This document shows positions 3,054 through 46,710 of a DNA stretch of 64,000 bases, piece after piece. The stretch comes from Candidatus Bathyarchaeota archaeon (GTDB lineage Archaea > Thermoproteota > Bathyarchaeia > TCS64 > PIYN01), in contig PIYN01000002.1 of the NCBI GenBank assembly GCA_003601775.1, positions 203-64,202 on the forward strand. The letters are read 5' to 3'. The translations under genes and the position numbers were made by a program. Positions within the stretch are counted from its first letter, which is position 1, and each line of letters opens with the position of its first letter. The notes beneath the pieces are model-generated. The model was given only the letters and a program-made list of their open reading frames with translations, did not search any database and was not told where the DNA came from.

Positions 3054-3091
3054 AAATAGGCTAAGGGCAGACTTCCTCCTGGTGTTCTGAG

Positions 3092-3667: not shown

Positions 3668-3765
3668 TCCGTCTCTTCGCCTTCCTTTTATAGTTCGCAG
3701 TCGAGGGGGATCATAGGAGGAGAACAGCCCTGAAGGGTCTCCGCGAGGGCGACTACATCGAGACT

Positions 3766-6352: not shown

Positions 6353-6364
6353 GGGTGTGAGGGG

Positions 6365-7102: not shown

Positions 7103-7125
7103 GGGTCCTCCTGGTAACGGGGCTG

Positions 7126-17127: not shown

Positions 17128-17258
17128 CTTAGCTCACTAAGAAGAGGGGGGACCTCCCTTATACTTTTCGCAGGTGAGAGAGATAGATCATCCCGAAGGG
17201 GATGTTTTTTATACAAAGATGGGATATTTTAGAGGGTTCAAGAAGGGAGGAACATCGG

Positions 17259-30315: not shown

Positions 30316-30420
30316 CCTCCCCTCCTCATCCCATGTGATCCTCCTTCCCGAGGCTAATAACCCTTTCCTCGGGGGCAAAGCTTCTATGTCTCCCCTCAGA
30401 GAATATAGTGGAGCAACATC

Positions 30421-31512
30421 ATGTGGCGGCTGATGCGCCCGGACGCGGTGGAGGTCCTCAGGGACGGCAAGGTGAAGAGGAGCCTCCCCAGGTATCTGGG
30501 CATCCTGGCTGGGCGGAGGACCGCGAAGTTCCTCATAGCGAAGAGGCTCCCCGTCGACTTCAGCGAGGACGACTCGACGGCCGATCTCTGGAGAATGCAC
30601 AGGGAGGCGACGAGACGATACTATCGGGTGGAGAAGGAGATCGACGAGGGAAAGCTTAGCCTCAAGGACCTCGATGAAGATGAGAGGTCCTACCTCGACC
30701 TGAAGATCGAGCTGGGACGCCGGATCATGTCCCACTGCCACTTCTGCGAGAGGAGGTGCGGCGTGAACCGCCTGGAGGGGGAGAAGGGGTACTGCCGATG
30801 CGGGATCGAGATGGCCGTCTCCACGATCTTCGCCCACATGGGGGAGGAGCCCGAGCTCGTCCCCTCCGGGACGGTCTTCTCCTGCGGCTGCACTATCCGC
30901 TGCATCCACTGCCAGAACTGGACCATCTCCCAGTGGTATGAGGAGGGGGAGAGCTACACCCCGGAGCGCCTCGCCAGGGTCGTGGAGGGCCTCCACAGGA
31001 GGGGTTGCAGGAATGTGAACATGGTTGGAGGGGAGCCTACTCCCTACACCTGGTTCTGGCTGAGGACGATGAGGGAGGTCGGGGTGAATATCCCGACGGT
31101 CTGGAACAGCAACAGCTACTACAGCCTCGAGACGGCGGAACTTCTCGCCGGCTTCATAGATGTCTACCTACTCGATTTCAAGTATGGAAACAACGAGTGC
31201 GCCGTGAGGATCTCGGAGGCGCCGGGGTACTGGGAGGCCTGCACACGGAATCACCTCGCCGCCGTGAGGTACGGGGAGGTCATCATCAGGGTCCTTGTCC
31301 TCCCCGGCCACTTGGAGTGCTGCACCAGGCCGATCCTCCACTGGATCGCGGAGAACCTCGGGAGGTGGGTGAGGGTGAACGTCATGTTCCAGTACAGGCC
31401 GGAGTACCAAGCCCATAAGATCGAGGAGCTGAGGAGGAGGCTGACGAGGGAGGAGCGGAGGAGGGCGTTGGAGATAGCGGAGGAGGCAGGGCTCCAGAAC
31501 GTGATAACCTAA
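30421..31512 (+). CDS. radical SAM enzyme, PflX-like (COG1313/COG1180 family) with an about 100-aa N-terminal extension
   Basis: HCHFCERRCGVNRLEGEKGYCRCG followed by a radical SAM cluster (CGCTIRCIHCQNWTIS). It is divergent from the AmrS-like gene. Confidence 0.6.
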   Translation: MWRLMRPDAVEVLRDGKVKRSLPRYLGILAGRRTAKFLIAKRLPVDFSEDDSTADLWRMHREATRRYYRVEKEIDEGKLSLKDLDEDERSYLDLKIELGRRIMSHCHFCERRCGVNRLEGEKGYCRCGIEMAVSTIFAHMGEEPELVPSGTVFSCGCTIRCIHCQNWTISQWYEEGESYTPERLARVVEGLHRRGCRNVNMVGGEPTPYTWFWLRTMREVGVNIPTVWNSNSYYSLETAELLAGFIDVYLLDFKYGNNECAVRISEAPGYWEACTRNHLAAVRYGEVIIRVLVLPGHLECCTRPILHWIAENLGRWVRVNVMFQYRPEYQAHKIEELRRRLTREERRRALEIAEEAGLQNVIT

Positions 31513-34500
31513 GCCTTCTCCTCGATCTTCACGAGGCCCAGCCTCAGCCTCATCCCGTCTATCTCGAACTCCGCCGTGTGCGCCCCCTCGGGGGGCTCCC
31601 CCTCTATGAGGGCCTTGGAGAGAGTCTCGGCCGAGATGTAGTCGCTGTGGATCTGGAAGACCTCTGCGAGCTGTGGGGGGGCCTCGTAGTAGGTCTCTAT
31701 GTAGTCGTCTATCTGGAAGCCGGCCTCCTTCCTCAGGTACTGTATCCTGCGGACGACGTCCCTCGCGAGGCCCTCCCTCCTCAACTCCTCCGAGATCTCC
31801 ACCCAGATCGCCACGACCATCCGCGGGTCCTCCGCCACGACGTACCCCTCCCTCGGCCTCCTCTGGACCTCCACCTCCTCGGGGAGAACCCTTATGGCCT
31901 TGCCCCCGACGCTCACCTCGACCCCCTCCCCCTTCAGGAACCTTGAGGCCAGCGACCTCGCATCCATCTTGGAGAAGGCCTCCTTGATCCTCGGGAAGAG
32001 CCTCCCGTGCTTCTTCCCCAGGATGTGGGAGAGCGGCCTGACCTCGTACTCGAAGACCTCCTCCTCATCGTTCGTCAGGACCAGCCTCTTCACGTTCAGC
32101 TCATCCCTCACCAGCTCCTCCAGGGGCCTCAGCTTCTCTAAGAGACCCTCCTCTGCGAGGACCTTCGCCTCGAGGAGGGGTTGGCGGAGCTTTATGCCCG
32201 CCTTGTTACGCGCCGACCGTCCGAGGCTGCTTGCCAGGATTGCGAGGTCCATGGCCTCCATCAGGTCCTCGTCTATCATCGAGGGGTCCGCCGTCGGCCA
32301 GTCGTTGTGGTGGACGCTCTCCGGGGCCTCGGGCTCGGCGCTCCTGACGAGGTTCTGGTAGAGGGCCTCGGCTATGAAGGGGGTGAAGGGGGCGATGAGC
32401 TTCAGGAGGGTCTTGAGGCAGGTGTAGAGGGTGGTGTATGCGACCCTCTTATCTACGTCGTCCTCGCTCTTCCAGAACCTCCTCCTCGAGCGGCGGACGT
32501 ACCACTTCGAGAGGTCATCCACGAAGGCCTGGATCCTCAAGGCGGGTGTGTAGGGGTTGTAGTCCTCCAGCCCCTCAGTCACCTCTTGGATGAGCCTGTG
32601 GAGCTTGGAGAGGATCCACCGGTCGAGGGGGGTGTACTCCTCAGAGGACTTCTCGGGGGTCCAGTGGTCGAGGTTGGCGTAGATGGCGAAGAAGTTCGCC
32701 ACGTTTATTAGGGGGATGAAGAACTCCCGCTTGACTTGGTCCGCCCGCTTGTAGCCGAAGAGGAGGTTGCTCTCGGGCCTCGTGGTGCAGTACATCCACC
32801 TCATGACGTCGGCGCCCATCGTCTCCGCGGCCTCGTCGAAGAAGATGGCGTTTCCCCAGGACTTGTGCATCTCCCTCCCATCCTCGCCGAGGACGAGGCC
32901 GTGGCCCAGGCAGGTCTTGAAGGGGGTCTCCCCCTCCATCACGGTGCTCATCGTCAGCATCGCGTAGAACCAGTTCCTGAACTGTCCGGGGAAGCACTCG
33001 GTGACGAGGTCGGCGGGGAACCACTTCCTCCAGTACTCCCTGTCCCTCCGGTAGTTGAGGGTCGAGTAGGCGACGATCCCTGCGTCGAGCCAGGGGTTCC
33101 CCACATCGGGGATGCGGGAGGCGAGGGAGCCACACTTCGGGCACCTGATCTTCACCTTGTCGACCCAGGGGCGGTGGGGGGTATGACCTTCGAACTCCTC
33201 CCACCCCTCCACGGCCTTCTCCCTCAACTCCTCCTTGCTCCCTATGACCTCGAAGTGCCCACAGTTGGGGCACTCCCAGATGGGGAGTGCCAGCCCCCAG
33301 TACCGCTTCTTCGAGATCATCCAGTCCTCCATGTTCATCAGCCAGTCCATCTCCTGCTTCAGCCCGAACTCCGGGATCCACCTCACCCTCTTCGCGACCT
33401 CCATGATCTGATAGCGGAGGTTCTCCCTCTTCTCCTCCTCCGTCACCTCCTCCAGCGGCTTGCCGAGCTTCTTCCCCATGGAGATGAACCACTCGTCGAC
33501 GAGCCTGAAGACGAGCTCGCTCCCACACCGCCAGCAGACGGGGTACCGGTGGGTGTAGTCCTCCCTCCTGACGAGGAGGCCCTTCTCCTTCAGGTTCTCT
33601 ATGATCGGCTCAGCCGAGTCGTAGACGTGGGTCCCCGTCAGCCAGCCGAAGCCCTCGATGAAGACGCCGAAGTCGTCGAGGGGGGCGACTGCTGGTAGAC
33701 CGTAACGCTTGCTGAGCTCGAAGTCCTCCTTCCCGCAGCCCGGGGCGATGTGGACGAGCCCCGTCCCCTCCTCCTCGCTGACCTCCTCCCATAGGATCAC
33801 CCTATGGGCCTCCACCGCCCCGGATCGCTGCTCCGCCGGCAGCTCGTCGAAGGGGCCGTCGTAGATCCATCCCTCCATCTCGGCGCCCCTCAGCTCCTCC
33901 AGGACCTGGTAATCGCCGTCGGGGAAGACGGAGGGGAGGGTACCCTTCGCGAGGTAGAGGATCTCCCCTTCCCTGCGGACCTTGACGTATGTGAGGTCGG
34001 GGTGGACGGCGACGGCGACGTTGGAGGTGAGGGTCCAGGGGGTCGTCGTCCAGATGAGGAGGGACTCACCCTCCCGCCCCCTGAGGGGGAACTTCACGAA
34101 GACGCTGGGGTGGGTGATCTCCCGGTATCCCTCGGTGACGATCTCGTGCTGGGAGAGGGCAGTGGAGCAGCGGGGACACCAGGGCATGACGTCCCTCCCC
34201 TTGTAGATCAGGCCCCGCTCATGGCACTTCTTCAAGAAGGCCCAGATCATGTAGTTGTTCTCATCCGAGAAGGTGAAGTAGGAGCCCCCGAGCTCTGGAC
34301 TCCCCAACCGCCCCACGAGCATCTCAACCCTGCCGGTCACGGGGCCCTGAGGTCCCTGGAGGGTTATCACCTGGTCGGGGTCCTCAAGTTTCTCAGCCAA
34401 CATCCTGAGCTCCTCGGGGTCGTTCCAGTCCATCCAGTAGCCCAGCCTGATCGACTGCTCCGTCTGGACGGCGGCGTAGCGGAGGACCCTCTGCTTGCAC

Positions 34501-34856
34501 TTCTTGACGAACTCCGCGATCCCATAGGCCTCGATGTCCTTCTTGCTCTTGAAGCCCAGCTCCCTCTCAACCTCAACCTCGACCCAGAGCCCCTGGCAGT
34601 CGAAGCCGTTCTGGTATCGGGTGTCGAAGCCCCTCATCGCCTTGTACCTGTGGAAGAGGTCCTTGTAGGTCCGACCCCAGGCGTGGTGGACCCCCATAGG
34701 GTTGTTCGCCGTGATCGGCCCATCTATGAAGGACCAGCGCTTCTTCCCCCTATTCATCTCCCGCCTCTTCCTGAAGGCGTCCGTCTCCTCCCAGAACTTG
34801 AGGATCCTATGCTCAAGCTCCGGAAAGTTGAGCGAGCTATCTATCTCCTTAAACAC
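31509..34856 (-). CDS. ileS: isoleucyl-tRNA synthetase
   Basis: 1115 aa class I aaRS with a HIGH-region equivalent, a large CP1 editing domain, KMSKS (MHKSWGN), and IleRS-specific zinc-binding Cys pairs. Confidence 0.9.
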   Translation of the reverse strand: MFKEIDSSLNFPELEHRILKFWEETDAFRKRREMNRGKKRWSFIDGPITANNPMGVHHAWGRTYKDLFHRYKAMRGFDTRYQNGFDCQGLWVEVEVERELGFKSKKDIEAYGIAEFVKKCKQRVLRYAAVQTEQSIRLGYWMDWNDPEELRMLAEKLEDPDQVITLQGPQGPVTGRVEMLVGRLGSPELGGSYFTFSDENNYMIWAFLKKCHERGLIYKGRDVMPWCPRCSTALSQHEIVTEGYREITHPSVFVKFPLRGREGESLLIWTTTPWTLTSNVAVAVHPDLTYVKVRREGEILYLAKGTLPSVFPDGDYQVLEELRGAEMEGWIYDGPFDELPAEQRSGAVEAHRVILWEEVSEEEGTGLVHIAPGCGKEDFELSKRYGLPAVAPLDDFGVFIEGFGWLTGTHVYDSAEPIIENLKEKGLLVRREDYTHRYPVCWRCGSELVFRLVDEWFISMGKKLGKPLEEVTEEEKRENLRYQIMEVAKRVRWIPEFGLKQEMDWLMNMEDWMISKKRYWGLALPIWECPNCGHFEVIGSKEELREKAVEGWEEFEGHTPHRPWVDKVKIRCPKCGSLASRIPDVGNPWLDAGIVAYSTLNYRRDREYWRKWFPADLVTECFPGQFRNWFYAMLTMSTVMEGETPFKTCLGHGLVLGEDGREMHKSWGNAIFFDEAAETMGADVMRWMYCTTRPESNLLFGYKRADQVKREFFIPLINVANFFAIYANLDHWTPEKSSEEYTPLDRWILSKLHRLIQEVTEGLEDYNPYTPALRIQAFVDDLSKWYVRRSRRRFWKSEDDVDKRVAYTTLYTCLKTLLKLIAPFTPFIAEALYQNLVRSAEPEAPESVHHNDWPTADPSMIDEDLMEAMDLAILASSLGRSARNKAGIKLRQPLLEAKVLAEEGLLEKLRPLEELVRDELNVKRLVLTNDEEEVFEYEVRPLSHILGKKHGRLFPRIKEAFSKMDARSLASRFLKGEGVEVSVGGKAIRVLPEEVEVQRRPREGYVVAEDPRMVVAIWVEISEELRREGLARDVVRRIQYLRKEAGFQIDDYIETYYEAPPQLAEVFQIHSDYISAETLSKALIEGEPPEGAHTAEFEIDGMRLRLGLVKIEEKA

Positions 34857-35035
34857 CCCTAATCAACCCCGATATAAGGAAATACCGACTCTTAAACATG
34901 ACACGGGTCCGTGGTGGAGCGCAAAATCTGGTCTAAATTTTGCAGTCACCGGGCACCCTTCGCACCAAAGATGGTGATATCCACTACAAATATAAAGTTG
35001 TCTACTCCAAGTTCCTCTCCAAGACCGCCTGGGCG

Positions 35036-35347
35036 TTACCTTTTATGCCGCTTCTGACGAGATCTCCTCTGCTCCTTCCTCCGGTAGTCCCGCTTCCTCT
35101 CGCCGTGGATCCTCACCCTCCTGAACTCCTGCCTCCCGGGGTCCCTCAGATACTGATTGACCTCGCGGTAGAAGTGGGAGTAGCTTATCTCCTCCTTGGA
35201 GAGCCTGGAGATCAGGTTGTTCAGCCTCTGCCTCTCCTCGACCCTGTGCAGGCCGTCCCAGGCCTTGGAGTAGGCCTCATAGGCCGCTCTGAACTTGAAG
35301 TCTCCCATCGAATCGAAGGTGAGCTTAGAAACCGGCTCTCTCTTCAT
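35036..35347 (-). CDS. hypothetical protein with a highly basic C-terminal tail
   Basis: The start at MKREPVSK is supported by an upstream TATA-like box. The C-terminal 35 aa are >50% R/K. Confidence 0.4.
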   Translation of the reverse strand: MKREPVSKLTFDSMGDFKFRAAYEAYSKAWDGLHRVEERQRLNNLISRLSKEEISYSHFYREVNQYLRDPGRQEFRRVRIHGERKRDYRRKEQRRSRQKRHKR

Positions 35348-35388
35348 CGTCACTACCAAGTCCTCAGAGGGATGAGATGGGTCCGTGG

Positions 35389-35396
35389 ATATAAAC
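35389..35396 (-). promoter_or_regulatory. TATA-like box (TTTATAT on minus strand) about 40 nt upstream of the 35347 start
   Basis: AT-rich octamer in an otherwise GC-rich context. Its spacing is consistent with an archaeal promoter with a short leader. Confidence 0.3.
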
Positions 35397-35526
35397 TCTT
35401 TCCCCCCATCGAGGACCCCGCAACGGGAATACAAAGCTTTAATAGTGTGGACCCTACCTATTGTGGCGTATACTTGGGATACCTCCCGGTATTCTGGGTG
35501 TAACTAATCGAAGAGGAGTGAGAAGT

Positions 35527-35685
35527 GTGAGTTACAGAGGGCGCAGCTACGGCCGCGGTCCGAGGGAGATGCATAAGGCCATCTGCTCCGATTGTGGGAA
35601 GGAATGTGAAGTTCCCTTCAAGCCCACTGAAGGTCGTCCGGTCTACTGCCGTGAGTGCTTCCAGAAGCGCAGAAGAAGATTTTAG
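35527..35685 (+). CDS. small CxxC-x17-CxxC zinc-ribbon protein with an RGG/SYRG-like N-terminus and a basic tail
   Basis: CSDCGKECEVPFKPTEGRPVYCRECFQKRRRRF has exactly 17 residues between the Cys pairs. GTG at 35527 lies 9 nt after a GGAG. ATG at 35569 is the alternative start. Confidence 0.5.
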   Translation: MSYRGRSYGRGPREMHKAICSDCGKECEVPFKPTEGRPVYCRECFQKRRRRF

Positions 35686-35865
35686 AATCTAAGTTAACGC
35701 TTTATCTTCACAGACCTTCTCTTTTTGTCATTTGAAGCATCTCAGAGGATAGCAGGCCTTCCTTTGAGCCGATTGCCGAGGATGAACATCATGGAGGTCG
35801 CGGATTGTAGCGTTTAGTAAAACTATTATTCCTTAAGGGGGATTTTATTTCTGGAGCTGCCTGGC

Positions 35866-36315
35866 TTGAACTCGGGGTTGAGCGACGCCGAGATCGAGGC
35901 CTTGTTGAAGGGTAAGACCCTCCTCGTCTACCTCTACCTCCTCAGGAGGGCGAATGAGGAGGGCGTGGGAGTCCGGGAGGTCCAGAGGATGCTCGGGTTC
36001 TCGAGCCCCAGCGTCGCCTCCTACCACCTGCAGAAGCTCGTGAACCTCGGCCTCGTGAGGAAGGAGCGGGGTCAGTATCTCCTTGCGAGGGAGGTGAGGG
36101 TCGGGATCCTCCGCCACTTCGTCATGATCGGCAGGTTCATGCTCCCCAGGTACCTCTTCTACGCCGTCCTCCTCACCACGATGCTCATTACCTACCTCAT
36201 CCAGTTCCCCCAGACCCTCTCAAGGTACAACGTCGCAACCCTCCTCCTGGGCACAGTCCCCACGATCATCCTATGGTACGAGACGATAAGAATATGGAGG
36301 GAGAAATTTCTATAA
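35866..36315 (+). CDS. membrane-anchored winged-helix (MarR/ArsR-like) transcriptional regulator
   Basis: N-terminal wHTH (VREVQRMLGFSSPSVASYHLQKLVNLGLVRKE) followed by two or three TM helices. Confidence 0.45.
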   Translation: MNSGLSDAEIEALLKGKTLLVYLYLLRRANEEGVGVREVQRMLGFSSPSVASYHLQKLVNLGLVRKERGQYLLAREVRVGILRHFVMIGRFMLPRYLFYAVLLTTMLITYLIQFPQTLSRYNVATLLLGTVPTIILWYETIRIWREKFL

Positions 36316-36412
36316 TAGGAGTCCTCCACCCCCATTAGCAGGATCCCTTTGGGGCAGAGAGGTGTTCTAAAGAGTAGTATTAAAAGGGTGTTCAGGGAGA
36401 TCCTTCTGCGGG

Positions 36413-36670
36413 ATGAAGCGGGCCTCCAAGATACTGGTGTACATCCTGATAGCGGCGATCTTGGGATATACGCTCATATCTATCCTGCCGGAGGAGGGAG
36501 TGAAGGTCTTAAGGAGGGAGTTGAATATGGCGGAATCCCTCTCCGGAGAAGGGTCTTCACCCACCCTCCCCCTCTGGGGCAAAAGCGGGGTTACGTGGAG
36601 CCTAGCTTGGCTCTTAGACCTGGCCATCGCCCTCTGCGTCTACCTGATCGCGAGGAACAGAATTCCGTAG
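36413..36670 (+). CDS. small membrane protein
   Basis: 85 aa with two hydrophobic helices. Confidence 0.3.
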   Translation: MKRASKILVYILIAAILGYTLISILPEEGVKVLRRELNMAESLSGEGSSPTLPLWGKSGVTWSLAWLLDLAIALCVYLIARNRIP

Positions 36671-36743
36671 AGAGACTTCGTAATACTCTCTAATATATTA
36701 GTCCTTATAACAGGGCTTTTAATCCTCCTATCAAAGACCGTGA

Positions 36744-36760
36744 CAGGGCCCTGGGATTTT
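36744..36760 (+). terminator. GC palindrome (CAGGGCCCTG) followed by a T-run; candidate terminator for the upstream + strand genes
   Basis: Perfect 10-nt palindrome followed immediately by GGATTTT, in a convergent intergenic region. Confidence 0.25.
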
Positions 36761-36803
36761 ACATGATCAGGGGATAAAATATCAGGGGCTCGAGGAAGGA
36801 TCC

Positions 36804-37601
36804 TCACTCGAAGCCCTTCTCCGTCAGGGCCTCGGCGAAGATCTCGCCGAACTCCGTGAGACGGACGCCCTTCAACTTCGCCCCCATCTCAGCCCTCACG
36901 AGGCCCTTCTCCTCCAACCGTGCCACGATCCTGCTGAAGCGGTTCCTCAGCGTGGAGTTCGGACTCTTATAGCCGAACCATCCGATGATCTCGCTTATGG
37001 AATCAGCCCGCCCCCCATGCTCCCTCAAGAGGATCAACAGCCTCTTCTCCTGCTCCCAGATCCTGCTCTCCCTCTCGCTATGCGGCTCAAGCCTATACCC
37101 AGGCAGCTTGATCTCCAACGGCTCCAGACTCGGGACGTTCCTCGCCGTCTCAAACCACTTCTGGAACTCCGGGTCTTCGGGCTTCCCCTTCACATACCAG
37201 GCGGGGCGTGCAGCCGGGACGGTGTAGACCCGGGCGTTCCTGAACATCAAGGCGATCGTCAGGGCGGCGCCCTCAGCGATATTCGTCGTTGAGGTGATAT
37301 CTATAAGGACCTCCTCCCCCTCCTCCCTCGCCCTGGCCAGGATCGCGTAGATCTTCTTGAAGGTATCCTTGTAGTCCATCGGGTCGAAGCCGACCAGGAT
37401 CGGGTCGAGGATCTCCAGCCTCTCCATCAGGTCCAGGGCGTTCTTACGGGACATGTAGGTGAAGACCTTCGTCTCGTCCTCAGCCTCCTTATCGCTGTAG
37501 AGGAGGTAGAGGCGAGTTATGCCCTTCCTCTTACTCCAGTACCTGATCCCCTCGAAGGGCCTCCTGAAATGCGTACCCACAAGGCAGACTATGACAGTCA
37601 A
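36804..37601 (-). CDS. Csa3-like transcriptional regulator (N-terminal CARF-like Rossmann domain + C-terminal winged helix)
   Basis: N-terminal VIVCLVGTH... and IDITSTTNIAEGAALTIALMFRNARVYTV parallel the Csa3 ligand-pocket segment. A C-terminal wHTH is present (SISEIIGWFGYKSPNSTLRNRFSRIVARLEEKGLV). Confidence 0.4.
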   Translation of the reverse strand: MTVIVCLVGTHFRRPFEGIRYWSKRKGITRLYLLYSDKEAEDETKVFTYMSRKNALDLMERLEILDPILVGFDPMDYKDTFKKIYAILARAREEGEEVLIDITSTTNIAEGAALTIALMFRNARVYTVPAARPAWYVKGKPEDPEFQKWFETARNVPSLEPLEIKLPGYRLEPHSERESRIWEQEKRLLILLREHGGRADSISEIIGWFGYKSPNSTLRNRFSRIVARLEEKGLVRAEMGAKLKGVRLTEFGEIFAEALTEKGFE

Positions 37602-37997
37602 ACCCGATAATCACCCAGATTCCGCATAAAGGGTATCTGTGAGGGGACTTAAGAATTTTTTGGAAGAACACTAAAAAGATCAATTGTTACAAAAATATTG
37701 GACATACATAATTATATCAGCATAATACTCTATTTTTAAATAACTCGAAGAAAGACGTCGAAAATCGATCTTCGAAGTATTAACGAAGATGAACAACTTT
37801 TTATAGGATGATTTTCAAAAGTTGATCTTAGCCTTTGATGCGGAGGCTTAGTATTCATGTCCTCTAAGGAGGTTACGGTATCTACTCTCCTACAGGATAT
37901 CCCCAACCAGTTCCCCAAGGCTTGGTTGAGGAGGGGTCAAGTAGGAACAGATAATGGCATCTTTCAACGTTAAATCGCCAACTCTGGGGCAAAGAAG

Positions 37998-40241
37998 ATG
38001 GATAAGGAATTGCAAAGATCGGTTGAAAAAATAAGACATCCGAGGTATATAAGGAAGAGAGATGGCAGACTTGAGGAGTTTGACCAGAGGAGGATCACCA
38101 TAGCCATATCCAAGGCCTTTAATGCAGTTGGGGAGAAGGATGGAGAGATCCACAAGAGGCTCAGCGACGAGGTCGTCCGCCAGCTGTATGAGAGGTACGG
38201 GGAGGAAGGCGTCCCAACGGTTGAGGAGATACAGGACCTGGTAGAGCATACGCTGATGAAGAACGGGTTCTACGAAGTCTCGAGGGCCTACATCCTCTAC
38301 AGGGAGAAGAGGAAGGAACTCCGGGAGCTGGCCTTCCTCTTGGAGTCAGGGGACATGGTCGATAAGTATCTTCAAGAGATGAGCTGGTATGTGAGAGAGA
38401 ACGCCAATCTGGGATATTCGATGCAGGGGCTCAACAATTATCTCGTCTCGAAGGTCATCTCCCAGTACTGGCTTATGCGGATCTACCCCCCGGAGATAAG
38501 GAGGGCACATATTAATGGAGACTTTCACATCCACAACCTTGGCATTCTCGGCCCCTATTGTGTTGGATGGTCCCTGCCAGATCTGTTGATGGAAGGGTTC
38601 GGCGGGGTCGCAAACAAATTGGAGAGTAAGCCCCCAAAGCACTTCAGCGTCGCCCTTGGCCAAGTCGTCAACTTCATGTATACCCTCCAAGGTGAGGCCG
38701 CCGGTGCTCAGGCCTTCAGCAACTTCGACACGTATCTCGCCCCCTATATCAGAGAAGATAGACTGACCTACAGAGAGGTCCTCCAGACGATGCAGGAGTT
38801 CCTCTTCAACATGAACGTCCCCACTCGTGTCGGGGGTCAGACGCCCTTCACCAACATAACAATGGATCTGAGGGTTCCGAGGTTCATGGAAAATGAGGGA
38901 GTAATAATCGGTGGGAAGATACAAGACTCCGTGTTCGGGGACTTCCAGGAAGAGATGGAGATGTTCAACAAGGCTTACCTCGAGGTCATGCTCCAAGGTG
39001 ATGCGAAGGGCAGGATCTTCTCCTTCCCGATACCAACCTACAATGTCACAGAGGATTTCCCTTGGGATTATGAGCCTCTATGGAAGTTGACCGCAAAGTT
39101 CGGGGCTCCATACTTCTCCAATTTCATCAACTCGGATATGAAGCCAGAGGATGTCCGGTCGATGTGCTGTAGGCTGAGGATAGATAACAGAGAGCTGAGG
39201 AAGAGAGGAGGGAGCTTCTTCGGCGCTAACCCCCTAACGGGCTCCATCGGGGTAGTCACGATAAACATGCCAAGGCTGGGATACCTCTCAAAGGAAGAGG
39301 ACGAATTCTTCGAAAGACTCGATCACCTCATGGACCTGGCGATGCAGAGCCTGGAGATCAAGAGGAAGACGGTGGAACGATTCACGGAATACGGCCTATA
39401 CCCCTTCTCCAGGCACTATCTCAGACACATCAAGGAAGGATTTGGGAGTTATTGGAAGAATCACTTCTCAACGATAGGATTATTAGGAATGAATGAGGCT
39501 TGCCTGAACTTCTTCGGCGAGGGGATAGAGAGCGATGCTGGGTTGGCCTTCGCCAGAAAGGTGCTCCTGCACATGCGGGAGAGACTCGCCGACTATCAGA
39601 TAGAGACGGGAAATATCTACAATTTGGAGGCGACCCCGGCCGAGGGGAGCAGCTACCGCTTAGCGAAGTTGGATAAGAGTAGGTACCCTGATATAATAGT
39701 CGCGAATGAGAGGTTCTTAGCCAGTGGCGCCGAGCCCTTCTATACCAACAGCACATGGCTCCCAGTGGACCATGAATTATCGCTTGGGGAGGCCCTCCGT
39801 CACCAGGATCAGCTGCAGCCGCTCTACACGGGTGGGACGGTCTTTCATATATACTTGGGGGAGGCATACACCTCATGGGAGGGGGCTTCCAAGTTGATAA
39901 GGAGGATCTTCAAGAACTTCCACCTCCCCTATGTCACCGTCACTCCAACATTCAGCGTGTGTCCAACCCATGGCTACATCTCAGGAGAACACTTTAGATG
40001 TCCGACTTGTGGTGCTGCCTGTGAGGTCTACTCCAGGATCGTAGGATACTTCCGCCCAGTCTCCCAGTGGAATAAGGGTAAGCAGAGCGAGTTCAAGATA
40101 AGGAAGGTCTTCGGAGGGGTTAAGAGTGACAAGGATATGAGCCCGGCGTCACCTTTGCCAATAATCCCCCGTACGAAGGAGGAGGTAAAGATCGAGAGAA
40201 GAGTGTCTGAGGAAGATGGGGCTGGGGGTGATCTTCTGTGA
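37998..40241 (+). CDS. nrdD: anaerobic ribonucleoside-triphosphate reductase (class III), ATP-cone-containing
   Basis: N-terminal ATP-cone (IRKRDGRLEEFDQRRI), a C-terminal zinc ribbon (CPTHG...CPTCG) and a glycyl-radical motif (SRIVGYF). Confidence 0.8.
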   Translation: MDKELQRSVEKIRHPRYIRKRDGRLEEFDQRRITIAISKAFNAVGEKDGEIHKRLSDEVVRQLYERYGEEGVPTVEEIQDLVEHTLMKNGFYEVSRAYILYREKRKELRELAFLLESGDMVDKYLQEMSWYVRENANLGYSMQGLNNYLVSKVISQYWLMRIYPPEIRRAHINGDFHIHNLGILGPYCVGWSLPDLLMEGFGGVANKLESKPPKHFSVALGQVVNFMYTLQGEAAGAQAFSNFDTYLAPYIREDRLTYREVLQTMQEFLFNMNVPTRVGGQTPFTNITMDLRVPRFMENEGVIIGGKIQDSVFGDFQEEMEMFNKAYLEVMLQGDAKGRIFSFPIPTYNVTEDFPWDYEPLWKLTAKFGAPYFSNFINSDMKPEDVRSMCCRLRIDNRELRKRGGSFFGANPLTGSIGVVTINMPRLGYLSKEEDEFFERLDHLMDLAMQSLEIKRKTVERFTEYGLYPFSRHYLRHIKEGFGSYWKNHFSTIGLLGMNEACLNFFGEGIESDAGLAFARKVLLHMRERLADYQIETGNIYNLEATPAEGSSYRLAKLDKSRYPDIIVANERFLASGAEPFYTNSTWLPVDHELSLGEALRHQDQLQPLYTGGTVFHIYLGEAYTSWEGASKLIRRIFKNFHLPYVTVTPTFSVCPTHGYISGEHFRCPTCGAACEVYSRIVGYFRPVSQWNKGKQSEFKIRKVFGGVKSDKDMSPASPLPIIPRTKEEVKIERRVSEEDGAGGDLL

Positions 40242-40282
40242 GGTTGATCTTCTTTAGATAGCATGAGGGAGGGTTATCAATT

Positions 40283-40558
40283 ATGACCTCGGAGTCTGTA
40301 AGGGTGTATACTCTCCCTGGGTGTCCCCACTGCCAGGTCTTGAAGGATTGGTTGAATAGGAGGGGGATACCCTTTGAGGAGAGGAGTTTCGACACCGAGG
40401 TTCAGGTGGAGTTCATCATGAGGAATATCTTCTCGGACCCGCCGATCCTGGAGGTGGGGTCGAGGATCCTCACCTCCGATGAGATCTTTCAGGGGGAGGA
40501 GATAGATGAGGATAAATTGAGGGAGGTCTTCCATGAAGAGGGCGAGGAGAAGGGGTAA
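40283..40558 (+). CDS. nrdH: NrdH-like glutaredoxin/thioredoxin-fold redoxin
   Basis: 91 aa with a CPHC active site near the N-terminus (VRVYTLPGCPHCQVLKDWL). It sits between the two nrdD genes. Confidence 0.65.
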   Translation: MTSESVRVYTLPGCPHCQVLKDWLNRRGIPFEERSFDTEVQVEFIMRNIFSDPPILEVGSRILTSDEIFQGEEIDEDKLREVFHEEGEEKG

Positions 40559-40619
40559 GGGAAAGGTCCTGCCACCCCCCTTGGAGCAGTTCTTCAAGGC
40601 GGAGAGGAGATACAGAGGC

Positions 40620-42797
40620 ATGCCGATGGTCAGGACGACCGACGGCTACCTCGTCCCCTGGAATAAGAGGAGGATCGTCGAGCAGCTCCTCGAGGAGACC
40701 CAATTGGCGGAGAAGATGTTCGGTGTTCCGCCGATCAGCGTGGAGTACGCGGAGAAGATCGCGGATGAGATCGAGCGACGTGTCAAGACGATGAGGCCGA
40801 GGTTCGTGAGCGGGCCGCTGATACGTGAGGTGGTGAACAACGTCCTCTTGGAGTGGTCTGAGGAGCGCCCGGAGTTCCAGATCTACAGGAACATCCTCAC
40901 CCGTGTCGGCGTCCCCATCTATGACGCCTATCAGATCGACCTGGGGCGGGGGTGGGAGGCGAGGGAGAACGCCAACCTCCAGCCCAACCCCGAGACGACG
41001 CATAAGAAGAAGGCCGACAGGCTGAGCAAGGAGGAGTACCTCCTCCTCCTGGACCCGGAGATCGCGACGGCCCACCACCAGGGCGACATCCACATCCACA
41101 CCCTGGAGTACTTCGGGACCCGCCCCTTCTGCCAGGACTGGGACCTGAGGTTCTTCCTCTACTACGGGCTCCTCCCCGACGGCACAGGCTTCAGGTCGAG
41201 CGTCGCCGGGCCCGCGAAGCACCCCGAGGTGGCGATCCTCCACAGCGTCAAGGTCCTGGCGGCGGGGCAGACGAACTTCAGCGGCGGCCAGGGCTTCATG
41301 TACTACACCGTCTTCCTGGCGCCCTACCTGAGAGGACTTCCCTACGAAGAGGTGAAGCAGCTGGCCCAGATGATGTTCTACGAGTTGACGCAGACCTACG
41401 TCACCCGTGGGGGACAGCTGGTCTTCAGCAACATCCAGCTCCCCATGGGAGTCCCGGAGATCTGGGAGGACGTCCCCGTCGTCATGAGAGGCAGGGTCGG
41501 CCCTGACATCTATGGGAACTATGAGGACGAGGTCCAGACCTTCTTCCGGGCCATCACGGAGGTGGCTCTGGAGGGGGACTACTGGGGGAAGCCCTTCAAC
41601 TTCCCGAAGAACGAGAACTACGTCAGCCCAGAGTTCTTCAAGCCCGAGTACGACGACCTCTGGCTCCTCGTCCACAGGGTCGTGGCTAAGTATGGCGCCC
41701 CCTACTTCGATAACATGCTCCCCAGGTACAGGGGCTACGGCCATGGGATCTCCTGCTACCAGTGCTGTGCCTACAACTTCGTCGAGACGCCGGAGACGGA
41801 TCCGGATTTCGAGGCCAAGGTCAACTTCGAGGATGGCGCCCACTTCAGTATGGGTGGGTGGCAGGTCGTGAGCATCAACATGCCCCGTCTGGCCTACAGG
41901 GCCAACGGGGACTATGATAAGCTCCTCGAGGGGGCGAGGAGGAATATGCGCCTCGCCGTCGAGGTCTTCAAGGCGAAGAGGCAGTGGATGGAGACTATGC
42001 TGGAGAATAACCTCATACCCTTCGCGACACAGAGGCCGAGGGACCCGAGGACCGGGAAGCTGGCGCCCCCAGCCGTAGACTTCAAGGAGCTCGTCTACGT
42101 CATAGGCGTCGTGGGGATCAACGAGATGGTCCAGTACTTCACGGGGAGCCAGCTCCATGAGAGCCAGGACGCCGTGAGGCTCGCCCTCCGCCTCCTGCTG
42201 GATATGGAGAGGTATCGGAAGGGTCTTGAGATGCAGACGGGGATGAAGATCAGGTTGGCGAGGACGCCGGCAGAGAGCACCGCTCAGACCTTCGCCGTCG
42301 CGGACCTCGTCTCGCCCAAGTACAGGAAAGCAGCCCAGACGGTGATCAAGGGGGACCTGAAGGAGGCGAAGAGGCTCCTGGCCCTTGGGGAGAGGGACCT
42401 CCCCATCTACTACAGCAACGGAACCCACACCTACGTCGGCGCGAAGATCCCCCTGGGGAAGAAGATCGATATAGAGCATAAGTTCTTCCCCATCCTGAGC
42501 GGGGGGAATATCTTCCACGTCTGGATGGGGGAGGCCTCACCCGACCCCGAGGCGGTCTACAAGATGACGAAGCGGATAGCCTCCAAGACCCAGATCGGCT
42601 ACTTCGCCTACACCAAGGACCTGACGATCTGTAGCCACTGCCAGACGACCTCCAGCGGCCTGAACGACGCCTGCCCCAACTGCGGGAGCAAGGATGTTAG
42701 ATGGTGGTCGAGGATCACGGGCTACTACACCGACGTCACGGGCTGGAACGAGGGGAAGAAGCAGGAGCTGAAGGAGAGGTACCGGCTCAGCATCTGA
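40620..42797 (+). CDS. nrdD: anaerobic ribonucleoside-triphosphate reductase (class III) paralog 2
   Basis: Degenerate ATP-cone (MVRTTDGYLVPWNKRRIV), zinc ribbon (CSHCQ...CPNCG) and a glycyl-radical motif (SRITGYY). The ATG at 40620 has a GGAGAGGAG 9 nt upstream and is preferred to the ORF-track start at 40533. Confidence 0.75.
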   Translation: MPMVRTTDGYLVPWNKRRIVEQLLEETQLAEKMFGVPPISVEYAEKIADEIERRVKTMRPRFVSGPLIREVVNNVLLEWSEERPEFQIYRNILTRVGVPIYDAYQIDLGRGWEARENANLQPNPETTHKKKADRLSKEEYLLLLDPEIATAHHQGDIHIHTLEYFGTRPFCQDWDLRFFLYYGLLPDGTGFRSSVAGPAKHPEVAILHSVKVLAAGQTNFSGGQGFMYYTVFLAPYLRGLPYEEVKQLAQMMFYELTQTYVTRGGQLVFSNIQLPMGVPEIWEDVPVVMRGRVGPDIYGNYEDEVQTFFRAITEVALEGDYWGKPFNFPKNENYVSPEFFKPEYDDLWLLVHRVVAKYGAPYFDNMLPRYRGYGHGISCYQCCAYNFVETPETDPDFEAKVNFEDGAHFSMGGWQVVSINMPRLAYRANGDYDKLLEGARRNMRLAVEVFKAKRQWMETMLENNLIPFATQRPRDPRTGKLAPPAVDFKELVYVIGVVGINEMVQYFTGSQLHESQDAVRLALRLLLDMERYRKGLEMQTGMKIRLARTPAESTAQTFAVADLVSPKYRKAAQTVIKGDLKEAKRLLALGERDLPIYYSNGTHTYVGAKIPLGKKIDIEHKFFPILSGGNIFHVWMGEASPDPEAVYKMTKRIASKTQIGYFAYTKDLTICSHCQTTSSGLNDACPNCGSKDVRWWSRITGYYTDVTGWNEGKKQELKERYRLSI

Positions 42798-42810
42798 GAG
42801 GAAGCGGGGA

Positions 42811-43344
42811 ATGATACTATCGGACGCCGAGCTGATACGGTACATCGAGGACAAGTTGCTGATCGTGGAGCCCTTCGATGAGGAGATCCTGAAGGAGAAC
42901 GGCCTCGACCTGAGGATCGGCTACGAGATCGCGAGGATCATCGACCCAGGGGCCGTGATCGATATCCGGAGCCCCGGGCTCGAGCGGTTCTACAGGAGGG
43001 AGAGGGTGAATGAGGGGGGTTTCATCCTCCATCCAAATGAGCACCTCCTCACCACCACCCTCGAGGCCATCACCCTCCCAAACGACCTCATGGCCTTCTG
43101 CGAACTCAGGAGCACCTTCGCCCGCCTCGGCATCAGTATCCCCCCCACGGTCGTGGACGCCGGCTTCTCCGGAAACCTCACCATCGAACTCCTGGGGAGC
43201 ATGGCCCCTGTGAGGCTGTACCCCAAGACGAGGTTCCTACACCTGGTCTTCGCGAGGCTCTCCAGCCCCGTGAGGAGGCCCTACAGGGGGAAGTACTATA
43301 GGCAACAGGGAGTGACCCTCCCGAGGATGGAGGAGCCCAGGTAA
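42811..43344 (+). CDS. dcd: dCTP deaminase (dUTPase-fold)
   Basis: 177 aa. ILSDAELIRYIE start and dUTPase-like motifs (VVDAGFSGNLTIEL). Confidence 0.75.
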   Translation: MILSDAELIRYIEDKLLIVEPFDEEILKENGLDLRIGYEIARIIDPGAVIDIRSPGLERFYRRERVNEGGFILHPNEHLLTTTLEAITLPNDLMAFCELRSTFARLGISIPPTVVDAGFSGNLTIELLGSMAPVRLYPKTRFLHLVFARLSSPVRRPYRGKYYRQQGVTLPRMEEPR

Positions 43345-43404
43345 GGCCCGGTCTTTCACCGCTTAAGATTTTAGGAGGGATGGACTCCCCCTTAGTGAGC
43401 ACAC

Positions 43405-44331
43405 ATGAGGCCGAAGGTTGTCCATGTAAGAGGGAGCGTCTACATGATCGACGCCAGCTACCACGGCCGGAGAGGCGTCCTCGGCACCTACGTGGTGAAG
43501 GGAGAGGAAGTGGCCGTGGTGGACCCAGGGCCAACGGTCTCGATCGACGGCCTCGTGGAAGCGTTAAGGGACCTGGGCATCGACCTCAGCGATGTGAGGT
43601 ACGTCGCCCCCACCCACATCCACCTGGACCACGCCGGGGGGTCCTGGAGGCTCCTGGAGCTCTGTCCTGGGGCGAGGCTCTACATCCACCCCAAGGGGGC
43701 GCCCCACATGGTCGACCCCTCGAGGCTCGAGGCAGCAGCTCGGAGGCTCTTCGGAGACCGTGTGGACGAATACGGCGAAGTCAGGGGCGTGTCTGAGGAG
43801 AGGGTCACGGTCTCTGTCGACGGAGAGGAGCTGGACCTCGGGGGTGGACTGAGGATAAGAGTTGTCTGGACCCCTGGGCATGCCTCCCACCATCAGAGCT
43901 ACTACATCCCCGATGGCAAAGTGGTCATCCTGGGGGATGCAGGGGGGATATATAACCGGGACCTCGATGTCGTCATACCTACCTCCCCGCCGCCCTTCAA
44001 TCCGGAGAAGGCGATGAGGAGCCTTGAGAAGCTGGCCGCCTTGAGGCCGGAGATCGTGTGCTACGGGCACTTCGGCTTCGCAGATGATGCCGTCAAGAGG
44101 CTCAGGGCTCATAGGGAACAGCTGGCGCTCTGGATGAGGGTTGTCGAAGAGGGGCTCAAGGAGGGGGCGGGGATGGGGGAACTCTACGATAGGTTGAGGT
44201 CCGAGGACCCCATGCTGGGGAGGCTCCCCGCCCCAGGGCATTTTGGAGGGAGAGCTATCGAACGGTCGCCCTCCGTGAACCTCCTGGGCTTCGTGGAGTA
44301 CTTCAAATGGCTCTGGAGGGGAGGGAGGTGA
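43405..44331 (+). CDS. MBL-fold metallo-hydrolase
   Basis: THIHLDHAGG motif with downstream His/Asp ligands. Confidence 0.6.
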   Translation: MRPKVVHVRGSVYMIDASYHGRRGVLGTYVVKGEEVAVVDPGPTVSIDGLVEALRDLGIDLSDVRYVAPTHIHLDHAGGSWRLLELCPGARLYIHPKGAPHMVDPSRLEAAARRLFGDRVDEYGEVRGVSEERVTVSVDGEELDLGGGLRIRVVWTPGHASHHQSYYIPDGKVVILGDAGGIYNRDLDVVIPTSPPPFNPEKAMRSLEKLAALRPEIVCYGHFGFADDAVKRLRAHREQLALWMRVVEEGLKEGAGMGELYDRLRSEDPMLGRLPAPGHFGGRAIERSPSVNLLGFVEYFKWLWRGGR

Positions 44332-44337
44332 CTCCGC

Positions 44338-45753
44338 TCACGCCTTGACCTTGTGGTAGCGGTTTCTCTCTATGTAGAGGTCTATCTTCTCCGGCGACTC
44401 CACCACGAACTCCACGGGCTGCTTAACGCCCTCCGAGTAGATATAGAACTCATAGTTCTCCATATCCTCCCTCTCTGGGATCAGGGGGACGCGCATCTCC
44501 GAGAACCAGCCCCCCCTCTCCAGATATAGGAGGCCACCATGCTTCACTACCTTCACCCTACTCAACCCCCGGTAGATCTCGTAGGTCCCCGTAAGCAGAT
44601 CCATCCTCCTCCATATCCGCAAGAGGGGGACGACCTCCTCAGGGTCCTTTCCCATCAAGGCCGCGAAGATCCCCTGGGCGATGGGGGCGTAGGGAAAGCC
44701 CGCGATGTTGGAGGCCATAGCGACACCCATCCTCTCTTCAGGCACAAAGGCAAGGTAGGCGGTGGACACCAGTATCGACCCCCCATGGGAGACCAATTTA
44801 TGTCCCAGGAAGTTCTCTATGACGCCCCAGCCATAGCCGTACCCGTTCCTCCCATAGAGGCCTGGAGGCCTCTCTATATGTATCCTCTGCATCTCCTCCA
44901 TGAGCTCAGGGCTCAGGAGCTCAACATTCCCGAACCTGCCTCCGTCGATGTTCATCCTCAGGTAGTTCGTGAGTTCCCTCACCGAGCTCAACATCCCTCC
45001 AGCGGCGGCTATGAAGGAGAACTCGGGGTTGCTCTTCACATCTGGATAGGGGAAACTCTTGGGGATCAGCCTCCCCTCCTTGTCCTTGATGTAGGGGGTC
45101 ATCCTATCCGGGTCCCTCTCGAAATCTCCCTTTGAAAAAGTCGTCCTCTCCATCTTGAGAGGCTTCAGGATCTTCTCCCTGATGTAGACATCAAAGGGCA
45201 TCTCGCTCACCCTCTGGATGATATCGCCGAGCATCCGGTACCCCGCGTTCAGGTAGAAGAACCTCCTGCCGGGCTCGTCCGCTATCTCCTCCTGAGCCCC
45301 GTTGATATGCCTGTAGAAGTCGTCGGCGCTCCCGAAGGGGATCCCCACGTCCCCCCTGATCCCCCTTGAGAGGGCTATCGTCGACGTGCCGAGGGAGGGG
45401 ATACCGGAGGAATGGGTCAATAGGTGGTGCACCGTGATCGGCTTCCCCGGTATCCCGATCTTGAGGGGGATGTACTTACTCACAGGGTCGTCGAGGCTGA
45501 TCTCCCCCCTCTCCACCAGCTGGAGGATTGCGAGAGCGACGAAGGACTTTGTGCAGGACCCTATGCCGTAGAGGGTATCCGGGGTGGCGGGGAGACTCCT
45601 CTCGACATCCCGCACACCGAACCCCTCGGCGTACACGACTTCCTCTCCTTCAACTACAGCTATGCTGAGGCCAGGCACTCTCCTCTGAGCCATAAGCTCT
45701 GGAACTCTCTTCTCAATAAAGCGCCTCATCCCATCAAGGTCTTCCTTAGACAA
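44338..45753 (-). CDS. serine hydrolase of the beta-lactamase / penicillin-binding-protein family
   Basis: S-x-x-K motif (GSCTKSF), and a 471-aa size typical of class C-like esterases and D-aminopeptidases. Confidence 0.65.
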   Translation of the reverse strand: MSKEDLDGMRRFIEKRVPELMAQRRVPGLSIAVVEGEEVVYAEGFGVRDVERSLPATPDTLYGIGSCTKSFVALAILQLVERGEISLDDPVSKYIPLKIGIPGKPITVHHLLTHSSGIPSLGTSTIALSRGIRGDVGIPFGSADDFYRHINGAQEEIADEPGRRFFYLNAGYRMLGDIIQRVSEMPFDVYIREKILKPLKMERTTFSKGDFERDPDRMTPYIKDKEGRLIPKSFPYPDVKSNPEFSFIAAAGGMLSSVRELTNYLRMNIDGGRFGNVELLSPELMEEMQRIHIERPPGLYGRNGYGYGWGVIENFLGHKLVSHGGSILVSTAYLAFVPEERMGVAMASNIAGFPYAPIAQGIFAALMGKDPEEVVPLLRIWRRMDLLTGTYEIYRGLSRVKVVKHGGLLYLERGGWFSEMRVPLIPEREDMENYEFYIYSEGVKQPVEFVVESPEKIDLYIERNRYHKVKA

Positions 45754-45771
45754 CTCAACCTCCCCTCTAAC

Positions 45772-46710
45772 CTATCCTGTTTTCTCGAGGAATATACTCC
45801 GGGGCAGATAAGCCGAGACGATCCAGTTGGGCTTATCGACGACCTCCGTGATCTTGAGGTCCACGACGATGCTGCAGAGCATATAGGCCTCCCACGGCTC
45901 CATCTGGTGCTCCTCAGAAAGGTACTCGACCATCTCCTTGACGGCCCTCCTCGAGGCCTCCATGAGGTCAGGGGCGATCCCCATCGTCACGTAGTACCCG
46001 GCCTCGTCGTACCTCCTCGTGAGCGGCCCGGGTGTGATGATCCTCGGTGCGAGGAGGCCCATCTTCTTCCTCAGCCTGAACCTGAGACTCACGTGAAGCG
46101 GGGCCTCTATCGCCGTGACGCAGACCTCCCCGTCTCCCTGGGCGGCGTGGCCGTCCCCGAGGGAGAAGAGGGCCCCTTCCACCCAGACGGGGAGGAGGAG
46201 CCTGCTCCCCCTCGTCAGGTGCCGCAGGTCCATGTTCCCGCCATGCCTCCCCGGCGGCATCACGGGGTGCTTCCCCTCCTCCAGTGGGGCCACCCCCATC
46301 GTCCCGCAGAAGGGGTCGAGGGGGATCCTTATGTCCTCCCTGAAGTAGGTGTGGTCGCCTGGGGAGAGGTCCCAGATCTTCAGCCTCGGCTCACTGAACT
46401 CCTCTAAGAGGCCGAAGCCCGGTATGATCGCGGACCACCCCCACCCCTTCGCGTGGATATCCAAGATCTCCACCTCCAAGGCATCCCCGGGCTCCGCCCC
46501 CTCGATGTACGTCGGCCCGGCGAGGGGGTACAGCCGATCCCAGTCAAGGCGGGAGAGGACGTCTGCCGTGGACTGGGGGGTTATCTGCCCGTCGGAGACC
46601 TCCCTCAGCTCGTACACAACGACGTCTCCAGGTGATACCCTTATCGCCGGCTCCAGGCTGTTATCCCACTTATAGTGGACCTTATCCTCGGGGAAAAGAT
46701 GGAACTTCAT
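45772..46710 (-). CDS. acetamidase/formamidase family amidohydrolase (FmdA/AmdA)
   Basis: GPTYIEGAEPGDALEVEI and HGGNMD motifs typical of the family. Confidence 0.65.
   Translation of the reverse strand: MKFHLFPEDKVHYKWDNSLEPAIRVSPGDVVVYELREVSDGQITPQSTADVLSRLDWDRLYPLAGPTYIEGAEPGDALEVEILDIHAKGWGWSAIIPGFGLLEEFSEPRLKIWDLSPGDHTYFREDIRIPLDPFCGTMGVAPLEEGKHPVMPPGRHGGNMDLRHLTRGSRLLLPVWVEGALFSLGDGHAAQGDGEVCVTAIEAPLHVSLRFRLRKKMGLLAPRIITPGPLTRRYDEAGYYVTMGIAPDLMEASRRAVKEMVEYLSEEHQMEPWEAYMLCSIVVDLKITEVVDKPNWIVSAYLPRSIFLEKTG

Follow-up and report, generated by a model that had tools for sequence, protein, structure and literature searches.

Two class III ribonucleotide reductases of different types in one gene cluster with a small redoxin and a dCTP deaminase in a Candidatus Bathyarchaeota archaeon

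We analysed a 64,000-nucleotide stretch of DNA from a Candidatus Bathyarchaeota archaeon (assembly GCA_003601775.1, contig PIYN01000002.1, positions 203 to 64,202; hereafter the window), in which open reading frame calls place four co-oriented genes on the + strand between positions 37998 and 43344. They encode a class III ribonucleotide reductase (RNR), NrdD-A (747 aa, 37998..40241), a small redoxin with a CPHC motif (91 aa, 40283..40558), a second class III RNR, NrdD-B (754 aa, 40533..42797), and the dCTP deaminase Dcd (42811..43344). The two RNRs are of different types, and it is likely that the arrangement as a whole arose by a fusion specific to one lineage, with both reductases probably active and complementary. 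Both kinds of enzyme are already known, and the tandem layout is a rearrangement in a single lineage, not a new system. The genes are separated by 41 nt, overlap by 26 nt and are separated by 13 nt, respectively; Shine-Dalgarno-like motifs precede the redoxin ATG (GGAGG-like) and the NrdD-B start at 40533 (GGGAGG). Judged by these spacings and by the position of the promoter, the four genes probably form one transcript.

The gene cluster was compared with related loci (numbered with the prefix L), of which about 90 were surveyed by tblastn. A further locus, L091 (ENA ERZ27227314), belongs to a related strain from another sample and is a 16-kb contig collinear with window positions 29312-45313, with 98.9% nucleotide identity and identical gene order. 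A first-pass annotation of the sequence had described two full-length, divergent NrdD proteins with the glycyl-radical motifs SRIVGYF and SRITGYY on either side of a CPHC glutaredoxin-like gene. All of these elements were found: the two proteins are 28% identical over their full length, each carries the motif quoted for it, and the redoxin gene lies between them.

NrdD-A was recognised with high scores by PF13597 (NRDD, 645 bits), TIGR02487 (564 bits) and PRK08270 (1036 bits, cut-off 548). Its N-terminal ATP-cone (PF03477, 89.8 bits) has the canonical KRDG motif (IRKRDG, with K20 and R21). The finger loop reads S-M389-C390-C391-R392 (MCCR), and C188 (betaA) and E544 align to C125 and E495 of the Thermotoga maritima enzyme, respectively. 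The glycyl radical would be carried by G683 in SRIVGYF, and the metal ribbon has the form C655-x2-H658...C668-x2-C671-x3-C675, a variant found throughout the family. Among 120 homologues the key residues are essentially invariant. NrdD-A is 70-90% identical to members of its own large Bathyarchaeia family, and in more than 12 assemblies the A-type gene is part of an nrdR-nrdD-nrdG operon, with the nrdR-like gene upstream. A comparison of its gene with that of L091 gave 22 synonymous and 7 non-synonymous codon changes. Beyond the glycyl-radical domain, the protein ends in some 40 aa of low complexity (window 40100-40241); this tail holds no Cys and is missing or far shorter in more than 100 homologues.

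NrdD-B scored 483 bits with PF13597 and 498 bits with TIGR02487 (cut-off 326). Its ATP-cone reached 23.4 bits, below the Pfam gathering score of 25.8, and reads VRTTDG, T35 and T36 replacing K-R throughout the family. Thus, the ATP-cone that had been assigned to both proteins is canonical in NrdD-A and degenerate in NrdD-B. For the zinc ribbon, likewise assigned to both, the reverse was found, since NrdD-B has the canonical CxxC...CxxC form (C700/C703/C714/C717) and NrdD-A the variant CxxH...CxxC-x3-C. The finger loop of NrdD-B is Y-Q410-C411-C412-A413 (QCCA), the betaA Cys is C200, the glycyl-radical glycine is G730 in SRITGYY, and Ala576 stands at the column of T. maritima E495. Among 118 homologues the catalytic residues are essentially invariant. 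The N-terminal 30 aa are kept in relatives (tblastn matches begin at residue 1; lengths of 748-754 aa). NrdD-B is 70-90% identical to members of its own large Bathyarchaeia family, 66-69% identical to proteins of Nezhaarchaeales, Culexarchaeia and Methanomethylicota, and 54-56% identical to those of Methanothrix and Methanoperedens, with which it shares the motifs SCYQCCAY, ALARTPAE, RPFCQDW and VRTTDG. Between the window and L091 we counted 13 synonymous and no non-synonymous codon changes. Judged by the codon changes that separate the two strains, purifying selection acts on both NrdDs. Both also look catalytically competent, as each has kept its betaA Cys, both finger-loop cysteines, the radical Gly and the ribbon; a check for lost catalytic cysteines, as expected of a pseudo-enzyme, found none missing from either. 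The family to which NrdD-B belongs is rich in inteins (P0009, P0118, P0120 and many of P0243-P0392): many representatives of clusters at 50% identity have lengths of 1000-2288 aa and match in 2-5 separate stretches, and Pfam Intein_splicing is present in some. NrdD-B of the window has no intein.

Three subclasses of NrdD are distinguished in PMC4493059: NrdD2 has an extra Cys and a Glu, NrdD3 has the extra Cys and lacks the Glu, and NrdD1 has neither. In a later analysis (bioRxiv 10.1101/2022.04.23.489257), the NrdD3 clade is described as having a QCCR/A loop and neither the Met nor the Glu, and enzymes with MCCR and Glu as holding the components for either formate or thioredoxin (also in PMC9669993). 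The roles of the residues aligned to T. maritima E495 and C125 were taken from PMC9669993 and PMC4493059. NrdD-A has the NrdD2 features, with the finger-loop pair C390/C391 and E544, and Met389 in addition; M389 and E544 set it apart from NrdD3. By its residues NrdD-A is therefore best assigned to an NrdD2-with-Met type and not to NrdD3. Since it keeps Met389 together with the Glu, it falls into the group for which Burnim et al. allow either formate or thioredoxin, and, judged by these residues, both formate and thiols are possible reductants. NrdD-B, with its QCCA loop, no Met, no Glu and a degenerate ATP-cone, fits the NrdD3 signature. The single-Cys MGCR loop of NrdD1 is present in neither protein (MCCR and QCCA, respectively). 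In a rough neighbour-joining tree of 68 sequences, NrdD-A was placed in the MCCR/Glu clade, apart from NrdD-B, and all xCCA proteins without the Glu, together with NrdD-B and the Methanosarcinales enzymes, formed one clade. Residues and tree thus place NrdD-B with the NrdD3 type and NrdD-A with the MCCR/Glu type. The first-pass annotation had taken both enzymes to be thiol- or redoxin-dependent rather than formate-dependent. This agrees with NrdD-B and its redoxin, which match NrdD3, but is too narrow for NrdD-A, which may use formate too.

The redoxin is tied to NrdD-B. Where a Thermoproteota locus includes upstream DNA, a homologue of 81-99 aa with a CxxC motif is almost always encoded immediately 5' of the NrdD-B-type gene, and the Methanoperedens gene is preceded by one too; the pairing is kept in about 60 loci, frequently with overlapping genes. 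Because the redoxin gene is directly upstream in nearly all related loci and overlaps nrdD-B here, its product is best regarded as the partner of NrdD-B and not as a centrepiece common to both NrdDs. The idea that the two paralogues bracket a shared redoxin was not borne out by these data. Family sequences for the redoxin were taken from the surveyed loci; a word-indexed database search returned 2 matches. Across 42 aligned sequences, C14, C17 and P54 do not vary, and the motifs M-R/K-N-x-F and PPILE (with the cis-Pro) are characteristic of the family. The window protein matched Pfam Glutaredoxin with 31.5 bits and remained under all curated cut-offs, including those of NrdH (TIGR02194, 24.5 versus 85.75) and YruB (30.5 versus 88.55); the best models were Uxx-star, YruB and GlrX-dom, each below its cut-off. 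Weak NrdH matches were found in 40 of the 42 family members and YruB matches in 41. Searching the PDB with the family profile returned small glutaredoxins (7c10, 1.6e-12; 3zij, 6e-10) and NrdH (1r7h, 3.3e-8). By sequence the redoxin is NrdH-like, a member of the NrdH/YruB-like small glutaredoxin group, and not NrdH proper. The expected kinship with an RNR-linked thioredoxin-fold family therefore holds, since it groups with small glutaredoxins and NrdH and is genetically tied to an RNR.

The closest relatives of NrdD-B are encoded in L009 and L010 (90% aa identity). These loci are syntenic with the window (79-83% nucleotide identity): the gene for isoleucyl-tRNA synthetase (IleRS) is followed, further along, by the gene of a 265-aa protein (reg265), the redoxin gene, nrdD-B, dcd, a metallo-beta-lactamase (MBL)-fold gene and the gene for inositol-1-phosphate synthase. 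Window positions 37603-40298, which hold nrdD-A, are missing from both. In the window, the region upstream of nrdD-A consists of two parts. An AT-rich divergent promoter region (37602..37835), adjoining reg265 (36804..37601, - strand), aligns with the L009 and L001 sequences that precede the redoxin gene and with the one preceding the nrdD-A homologue in L005, and the nrdD-A 5' leader (37836..37997) aligns with the L005 upstream region only, not with L009 or L001. The GC3 (G+C content at third codon positions) of nrdD-A is 0.68 compared to 0.81 +/- 0.06 for the window genes (z -2.07); that of its nearest relative is 0.41. Because nrdD-A is absent from L009, because the promoter in front of it is homologous to the redoxin promoter elsewhere and because its GC3 is lower, the simplest reading of the sequences is that nrdD-A was inserted, with about 160 bp of leader of its own, into an older redoxin-nrdD3-dcd operon, downstream of the promoter and ahead of the redoxin gene. 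In none of the approximately 90 other surveyed loci does an A-type nrdD stand beside a redoxin-nrdD-B pair. Insertion of Tn7 type at an nrdD attachment site was considered irrelevant, as no transposition genes flank the insert. The surroundings differ from L009 in other respects too: a Pab87-type serine beta-lactamase/peptidase gene and a formamidase-family gene (window 44338-46710, - strand) are both absent from L009, and three L009 genes between IleRS and a 262-aa gene are replaced in the window.

Several observations weigh against this reading. In L005, the nearest homologue of NrdD-A (83% identity) is encoded behind the same promoter sequence (promoter-like sequence within 7540-8000), together with a reg265 remnant (81 bp; 39-codon remnant at 7473-7592, - strand), and neither the redoxin gene nor nrdD-B follows downstream. 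Given this promoter and remnant, the transfers may have taken place in more than one order and direction. The L005 junction points to another event of rearrangement or transfer, the association of an A-type gene with this promoter having travelled or decayed in a second lineage as well. By its GC3, nrdD-A deviates only modestly, being the third lowest among 53 genes. As to the two types occurring within the same assembly elsewhere, record names revealed no shared accessions between A-type and B-type loci. The neighbour-joining tree is rough and was built without curated RNRdb references or the Methanosarcina barkeri NrdD. Co-transcription is read from spacings and promoter position, and an internal promoter within nrdD-A may also serve the downstream genes. 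Finally, no protein in the 64-kb window reached an NrdG model, and Pfam scans of the window found no ferredoxin:disulfide reductase, no gene like a ferredoxin:thioredoxin or ferredoxin:disulfide reductase (FTR/FDR-like) and no thioredoxin reductase.

Other origins of the arrangement were weighed against the insertion. A chimera of metagenome assembly would agree with the G+C content of nrdD-A and its flanks, which is below that of the adjoining genes, but the independently assembled L091 has the same gene order and both junctions, and a chimera is vanishingly unlikely. The first-pass annotation had proposed tandem paralogues that became sub-functionalised after a local duplication. Two full-length NrdDs flanking a redoxin in one orientation, with differing ATP-cone quality and active-site residues, would be the expected result of a duplication of one nrdD and specialisation of the copies around a common redoxin. 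However, the copies are far less similar to each other than each is to its own family, they fall into separate clades, their closest syntenic relatives L009 and L010 do not have NrdD-A, no other surveyed locus pairs the types, and A-type genes normally reside with nrdR and nrdG. We consequently abandoned duplication as very improbable. That one of the two NrdDs is catalytically dead and acts as a regulator or scaffold was suggested by about 20 other Bathyarchaeia loci, in which a dead NrdD-like protein with a winged helix-turn-helix (wHTH) is encoded upstream of the redoxin; yet in both window proteins the betaA Cys, the two finger-loop cysteines, the glycine of RxxGY and the ribbon are retained, and NrdD-A has no wHTH and scores far above the cut-off of its equivalog model, which makes such a role extremely doubtful.

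The status of nrdD-A within the operon leaves more room for debate. It could be a recently and neutrally acquired or relocated, redundant passenger, which may be lost again or may come to replace NrdD-B. Its lower GC3, the restriction of the arrangement to one lineage (the window and L091) and the lack of the usual nrdR and nrdG partners are in line with this. On the other hand, the reading frame is intact with every catalytic residue in place, synonymous changes outnumber non-synonymous ones threefold between the strains, the gene lies directly behind the operon promoter and is probably expressed, and its ATP-cone and Glu/Met set are unlike those of NrdD-B, leaving room for a distinct role. 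We regard a mere passenger as unlikely. Just as unlikely is a joint proposal in which NrdD-A has been recruited to the electron supply of NrdD-B, the two sharing one promoter, the redoxin and an unlinked activase. Here, NrdD-A would be switched by ATP/dATP, NrdD-B would be constitutive with a dead cone, and reg265 (CARF-like/wHTH) would sense nucleotides and replace NrdR. A lineage-specific fusion of two probably active, complementary reductases remains the likely explanation.

An activase was also sought among the radical-SAM proteins of the window. The activase-like protein encoded at 30421..31512 (+ strand, 363 aa; Pfam Radical_SAM, 65 bits, and Fer4_12) reached 38.8 bits with its best NCBIfam model, NrdG2, compared to a cut-off of 131, and it has an extra N-terminal Cys-rich region. 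True NrdG2 proteins encoded beside relatives score 140-191 bits. The protein was therefore rejected as NrdG and is at most a weak candidate activase. A second radical-SAM gene (29269-~30300, - strand) was rejected as well, as it encodes an AmmeMemoRadiSam enzyme (TIGR04337, 368 bits). Both are found 7-8 kb 5' of the RNR operon. A CoA-disulfide-reductase-like gene (17202-18605) is 22 kb away and unlinked to the operon.

From these features the following mode of action can be proposed. The ancestral unit would have comprised the divergent regulator-like gene, the promoter, the glutaredoxin-like redoxin, the NrdD3-type NrdD-B and Dcd. NrdD-B would act as a glycyl/thiyl-radical NTP reductase, each turnover most likely leaving a disulfide between betaA Cys200 and one of the finger-loop cysteines (411 or 412). 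The CPHC redoxin, whose overlapping gene is probably translationally coupled to nrdD-B, would most likely re-reduce this disulfide and would itself be recharged by a reductase encoded elsewhere. Dcd would convert part of the dCTP to dUTP or dUMP for thymidylate/dTTP synthesis. In the enlarged operon, NrdD-A would be switched by ATP/dATP through its ATP-cone and would be able to draw on formate and/or a thiol redoxin, and NrdD-B would be strictly redoxin-dependent and probably free of ATP-cone control. Both reductases would need an NrdG from outside the window.

To our knowledge, Methanosarcina is the only genus in which an NrdD3 enzyme, dependent on a redoxin, has been characterised. The M. 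barkeri NrdH-like redoxin is reportedly reduced by a ferredoxin:disulfide reductase. NrdD-B resembles the M. barkeri system in its QCCA loop, in the lack of Met and Glu and in having a small glutaredoxin-like redoxin in the operon. In contrast to that system, the host belongs to the non-methanogenic Bathyarchaeia, neither a ferredoxin:disulfide reductase nor NrdG is encoded nearby, the redoxin has a CPHC motif (relatives have CPKC or CPRC) and scores below the NrdH cut-off, and the operon includes dcd and a second nrdD. A glutaredoxin-like NrdH is listed as the NrdD3 reductant in Table 1 of PMC9176816. Like NrdH/YruB proteins, the window redoxin is predicted to adopt a thioredoxin fold (about 80-90 aa) with a CxxC motif and a cis-Pro, and it is linked to an RNR; unlike them it falls short of all curated cut-offs and has conserved motifs of its own. 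NrdD-A shares the double-Cys loop, the Glu and a Tyr-Cys on betaA with the NrdD2 enzymes of Neisseria bacilliformis (4coi) and T. maritima (4u3e), but its loop is MCCR and not SCCR, it has a full ATP-cone, which is absent in the T. maritima protein, and its match to 4coi has an E value of only 1.2e-35. The top PDB match of both NrdDs is the class III RNR of Prevotella copri (8p23), with which NrdD-A shares an N-terminal K-R-D-G ATP-cone; the catalytic core, however, is only distantly related, and NrdD-B has T-T in place of K-R. The NrdD3 type is widespread in Bathyarchaeia and further Thermoproteota lineages, where it is rigidly tied to a small redoxin of its own. As the locus combines it with an ATP-cone-bearing MCCR/Glu enzyme, it offers a convenient case for comparing reductant use and allosteric control within one organism.

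The dCTP deaminase assignment is clear (TIGR02274, 174.8 bits, cut-off 92.8), and dCTP deaminases are also its best matches in the PDB, with 4xjc first (2.9e-23). The gene starts 13 nt past the nrdD-B stop codon. Of the loci compared, only L009/L010 and L091 share this position 3' of nrdD-B. The linkage of dNTP-supply functions seen by the first-pass annotation is consequently real here, but otherwise confined to the closest relatives.

The divergent gene reg265 is conserved upstream of redoxin-nrdD-B in at least 28 loci, with 65-85% identity. Its product has an HFX_2341-like N-terminal domain (Pfam HFX_2341_N, 26.1 bits, below the gathering score of 30), a winged-helix-like C-terminal region and the motif 'LIDITSTTN'. 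Nothing significant was found when the PDB was searched with the reg265 profile; the weak hints were Csx1/DxTHG (CARF) with an E value of 0.48 and MarR with 1.2. The protein is possibly a ligand-sensing transcription regulator of the operon. The promoter region between reg265 and the operon contains one near-palindrome, ATTGTTACAA, at 37683-37692; this single occurrence is by itself not above chance. No Rfam family matched the nrdD-A leader, and its predicted folding was not unusual (z 0.2). The 396 bp of promoter region and leader (37602-37997), likewise with no Rfam match and nothing unusual in the predicted folding, are identical to L091 8291-8686 (0 differences), and the flanking genes differ by 1.4-1.5%. 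Over the 16 kb, divergence between the window and L091 is mosaic, ranging from 0.3 to 3.6% per gene. The identical 396 bp may reflect recombination or chance.

Besides reg265, the most intriguing by-product outside the main finding is a family of NrdD-like proteins from another Bathyarchaeia clade. In about 20 loci, a protein of 720-775 aa is encoded just upstream of the redoxin and the NrdD3-type gene, for example in L004 (5467-7659), L046 (7255-9477; Bathyarchaeum tardum CP122380.1), L042 (7257-9524) and L037 (2185-4440). It combines an NRDD barrel (200-320 bits) with a winged-helix domain (DUF7347/ArsR-like), an ATP-cone (26-30 bits) and a ribbon of the form CxxC...CxxC, and it has neither the betaA Cys, nor the finger-loop Cys pair, nor the glycyl-radical glycine. 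This family and reg265 are mutually exclusive. By its domains, the protein could be a regulator that derives from an RNR and senses nucleotides, comparable to NrdR. A literature search on glycyl radical pseudoenzymes of anaerobic ribonucleotide reductase found no paper.

Elsewhere in the window, the neighbouring genes are archaeal in kind and include those for a RIO kinase and two TFB paralogues as well as pterin-related genes. A cluster at 2049-8688 holds genes for a CitG-like triphosphoribosyl transferase, DUF447, a GHMP-kinase-like protein and pterin-binding (DUF4346/DUF6513) proteins, which we take to resemble (methano)pterin biosynthesis gene sets.

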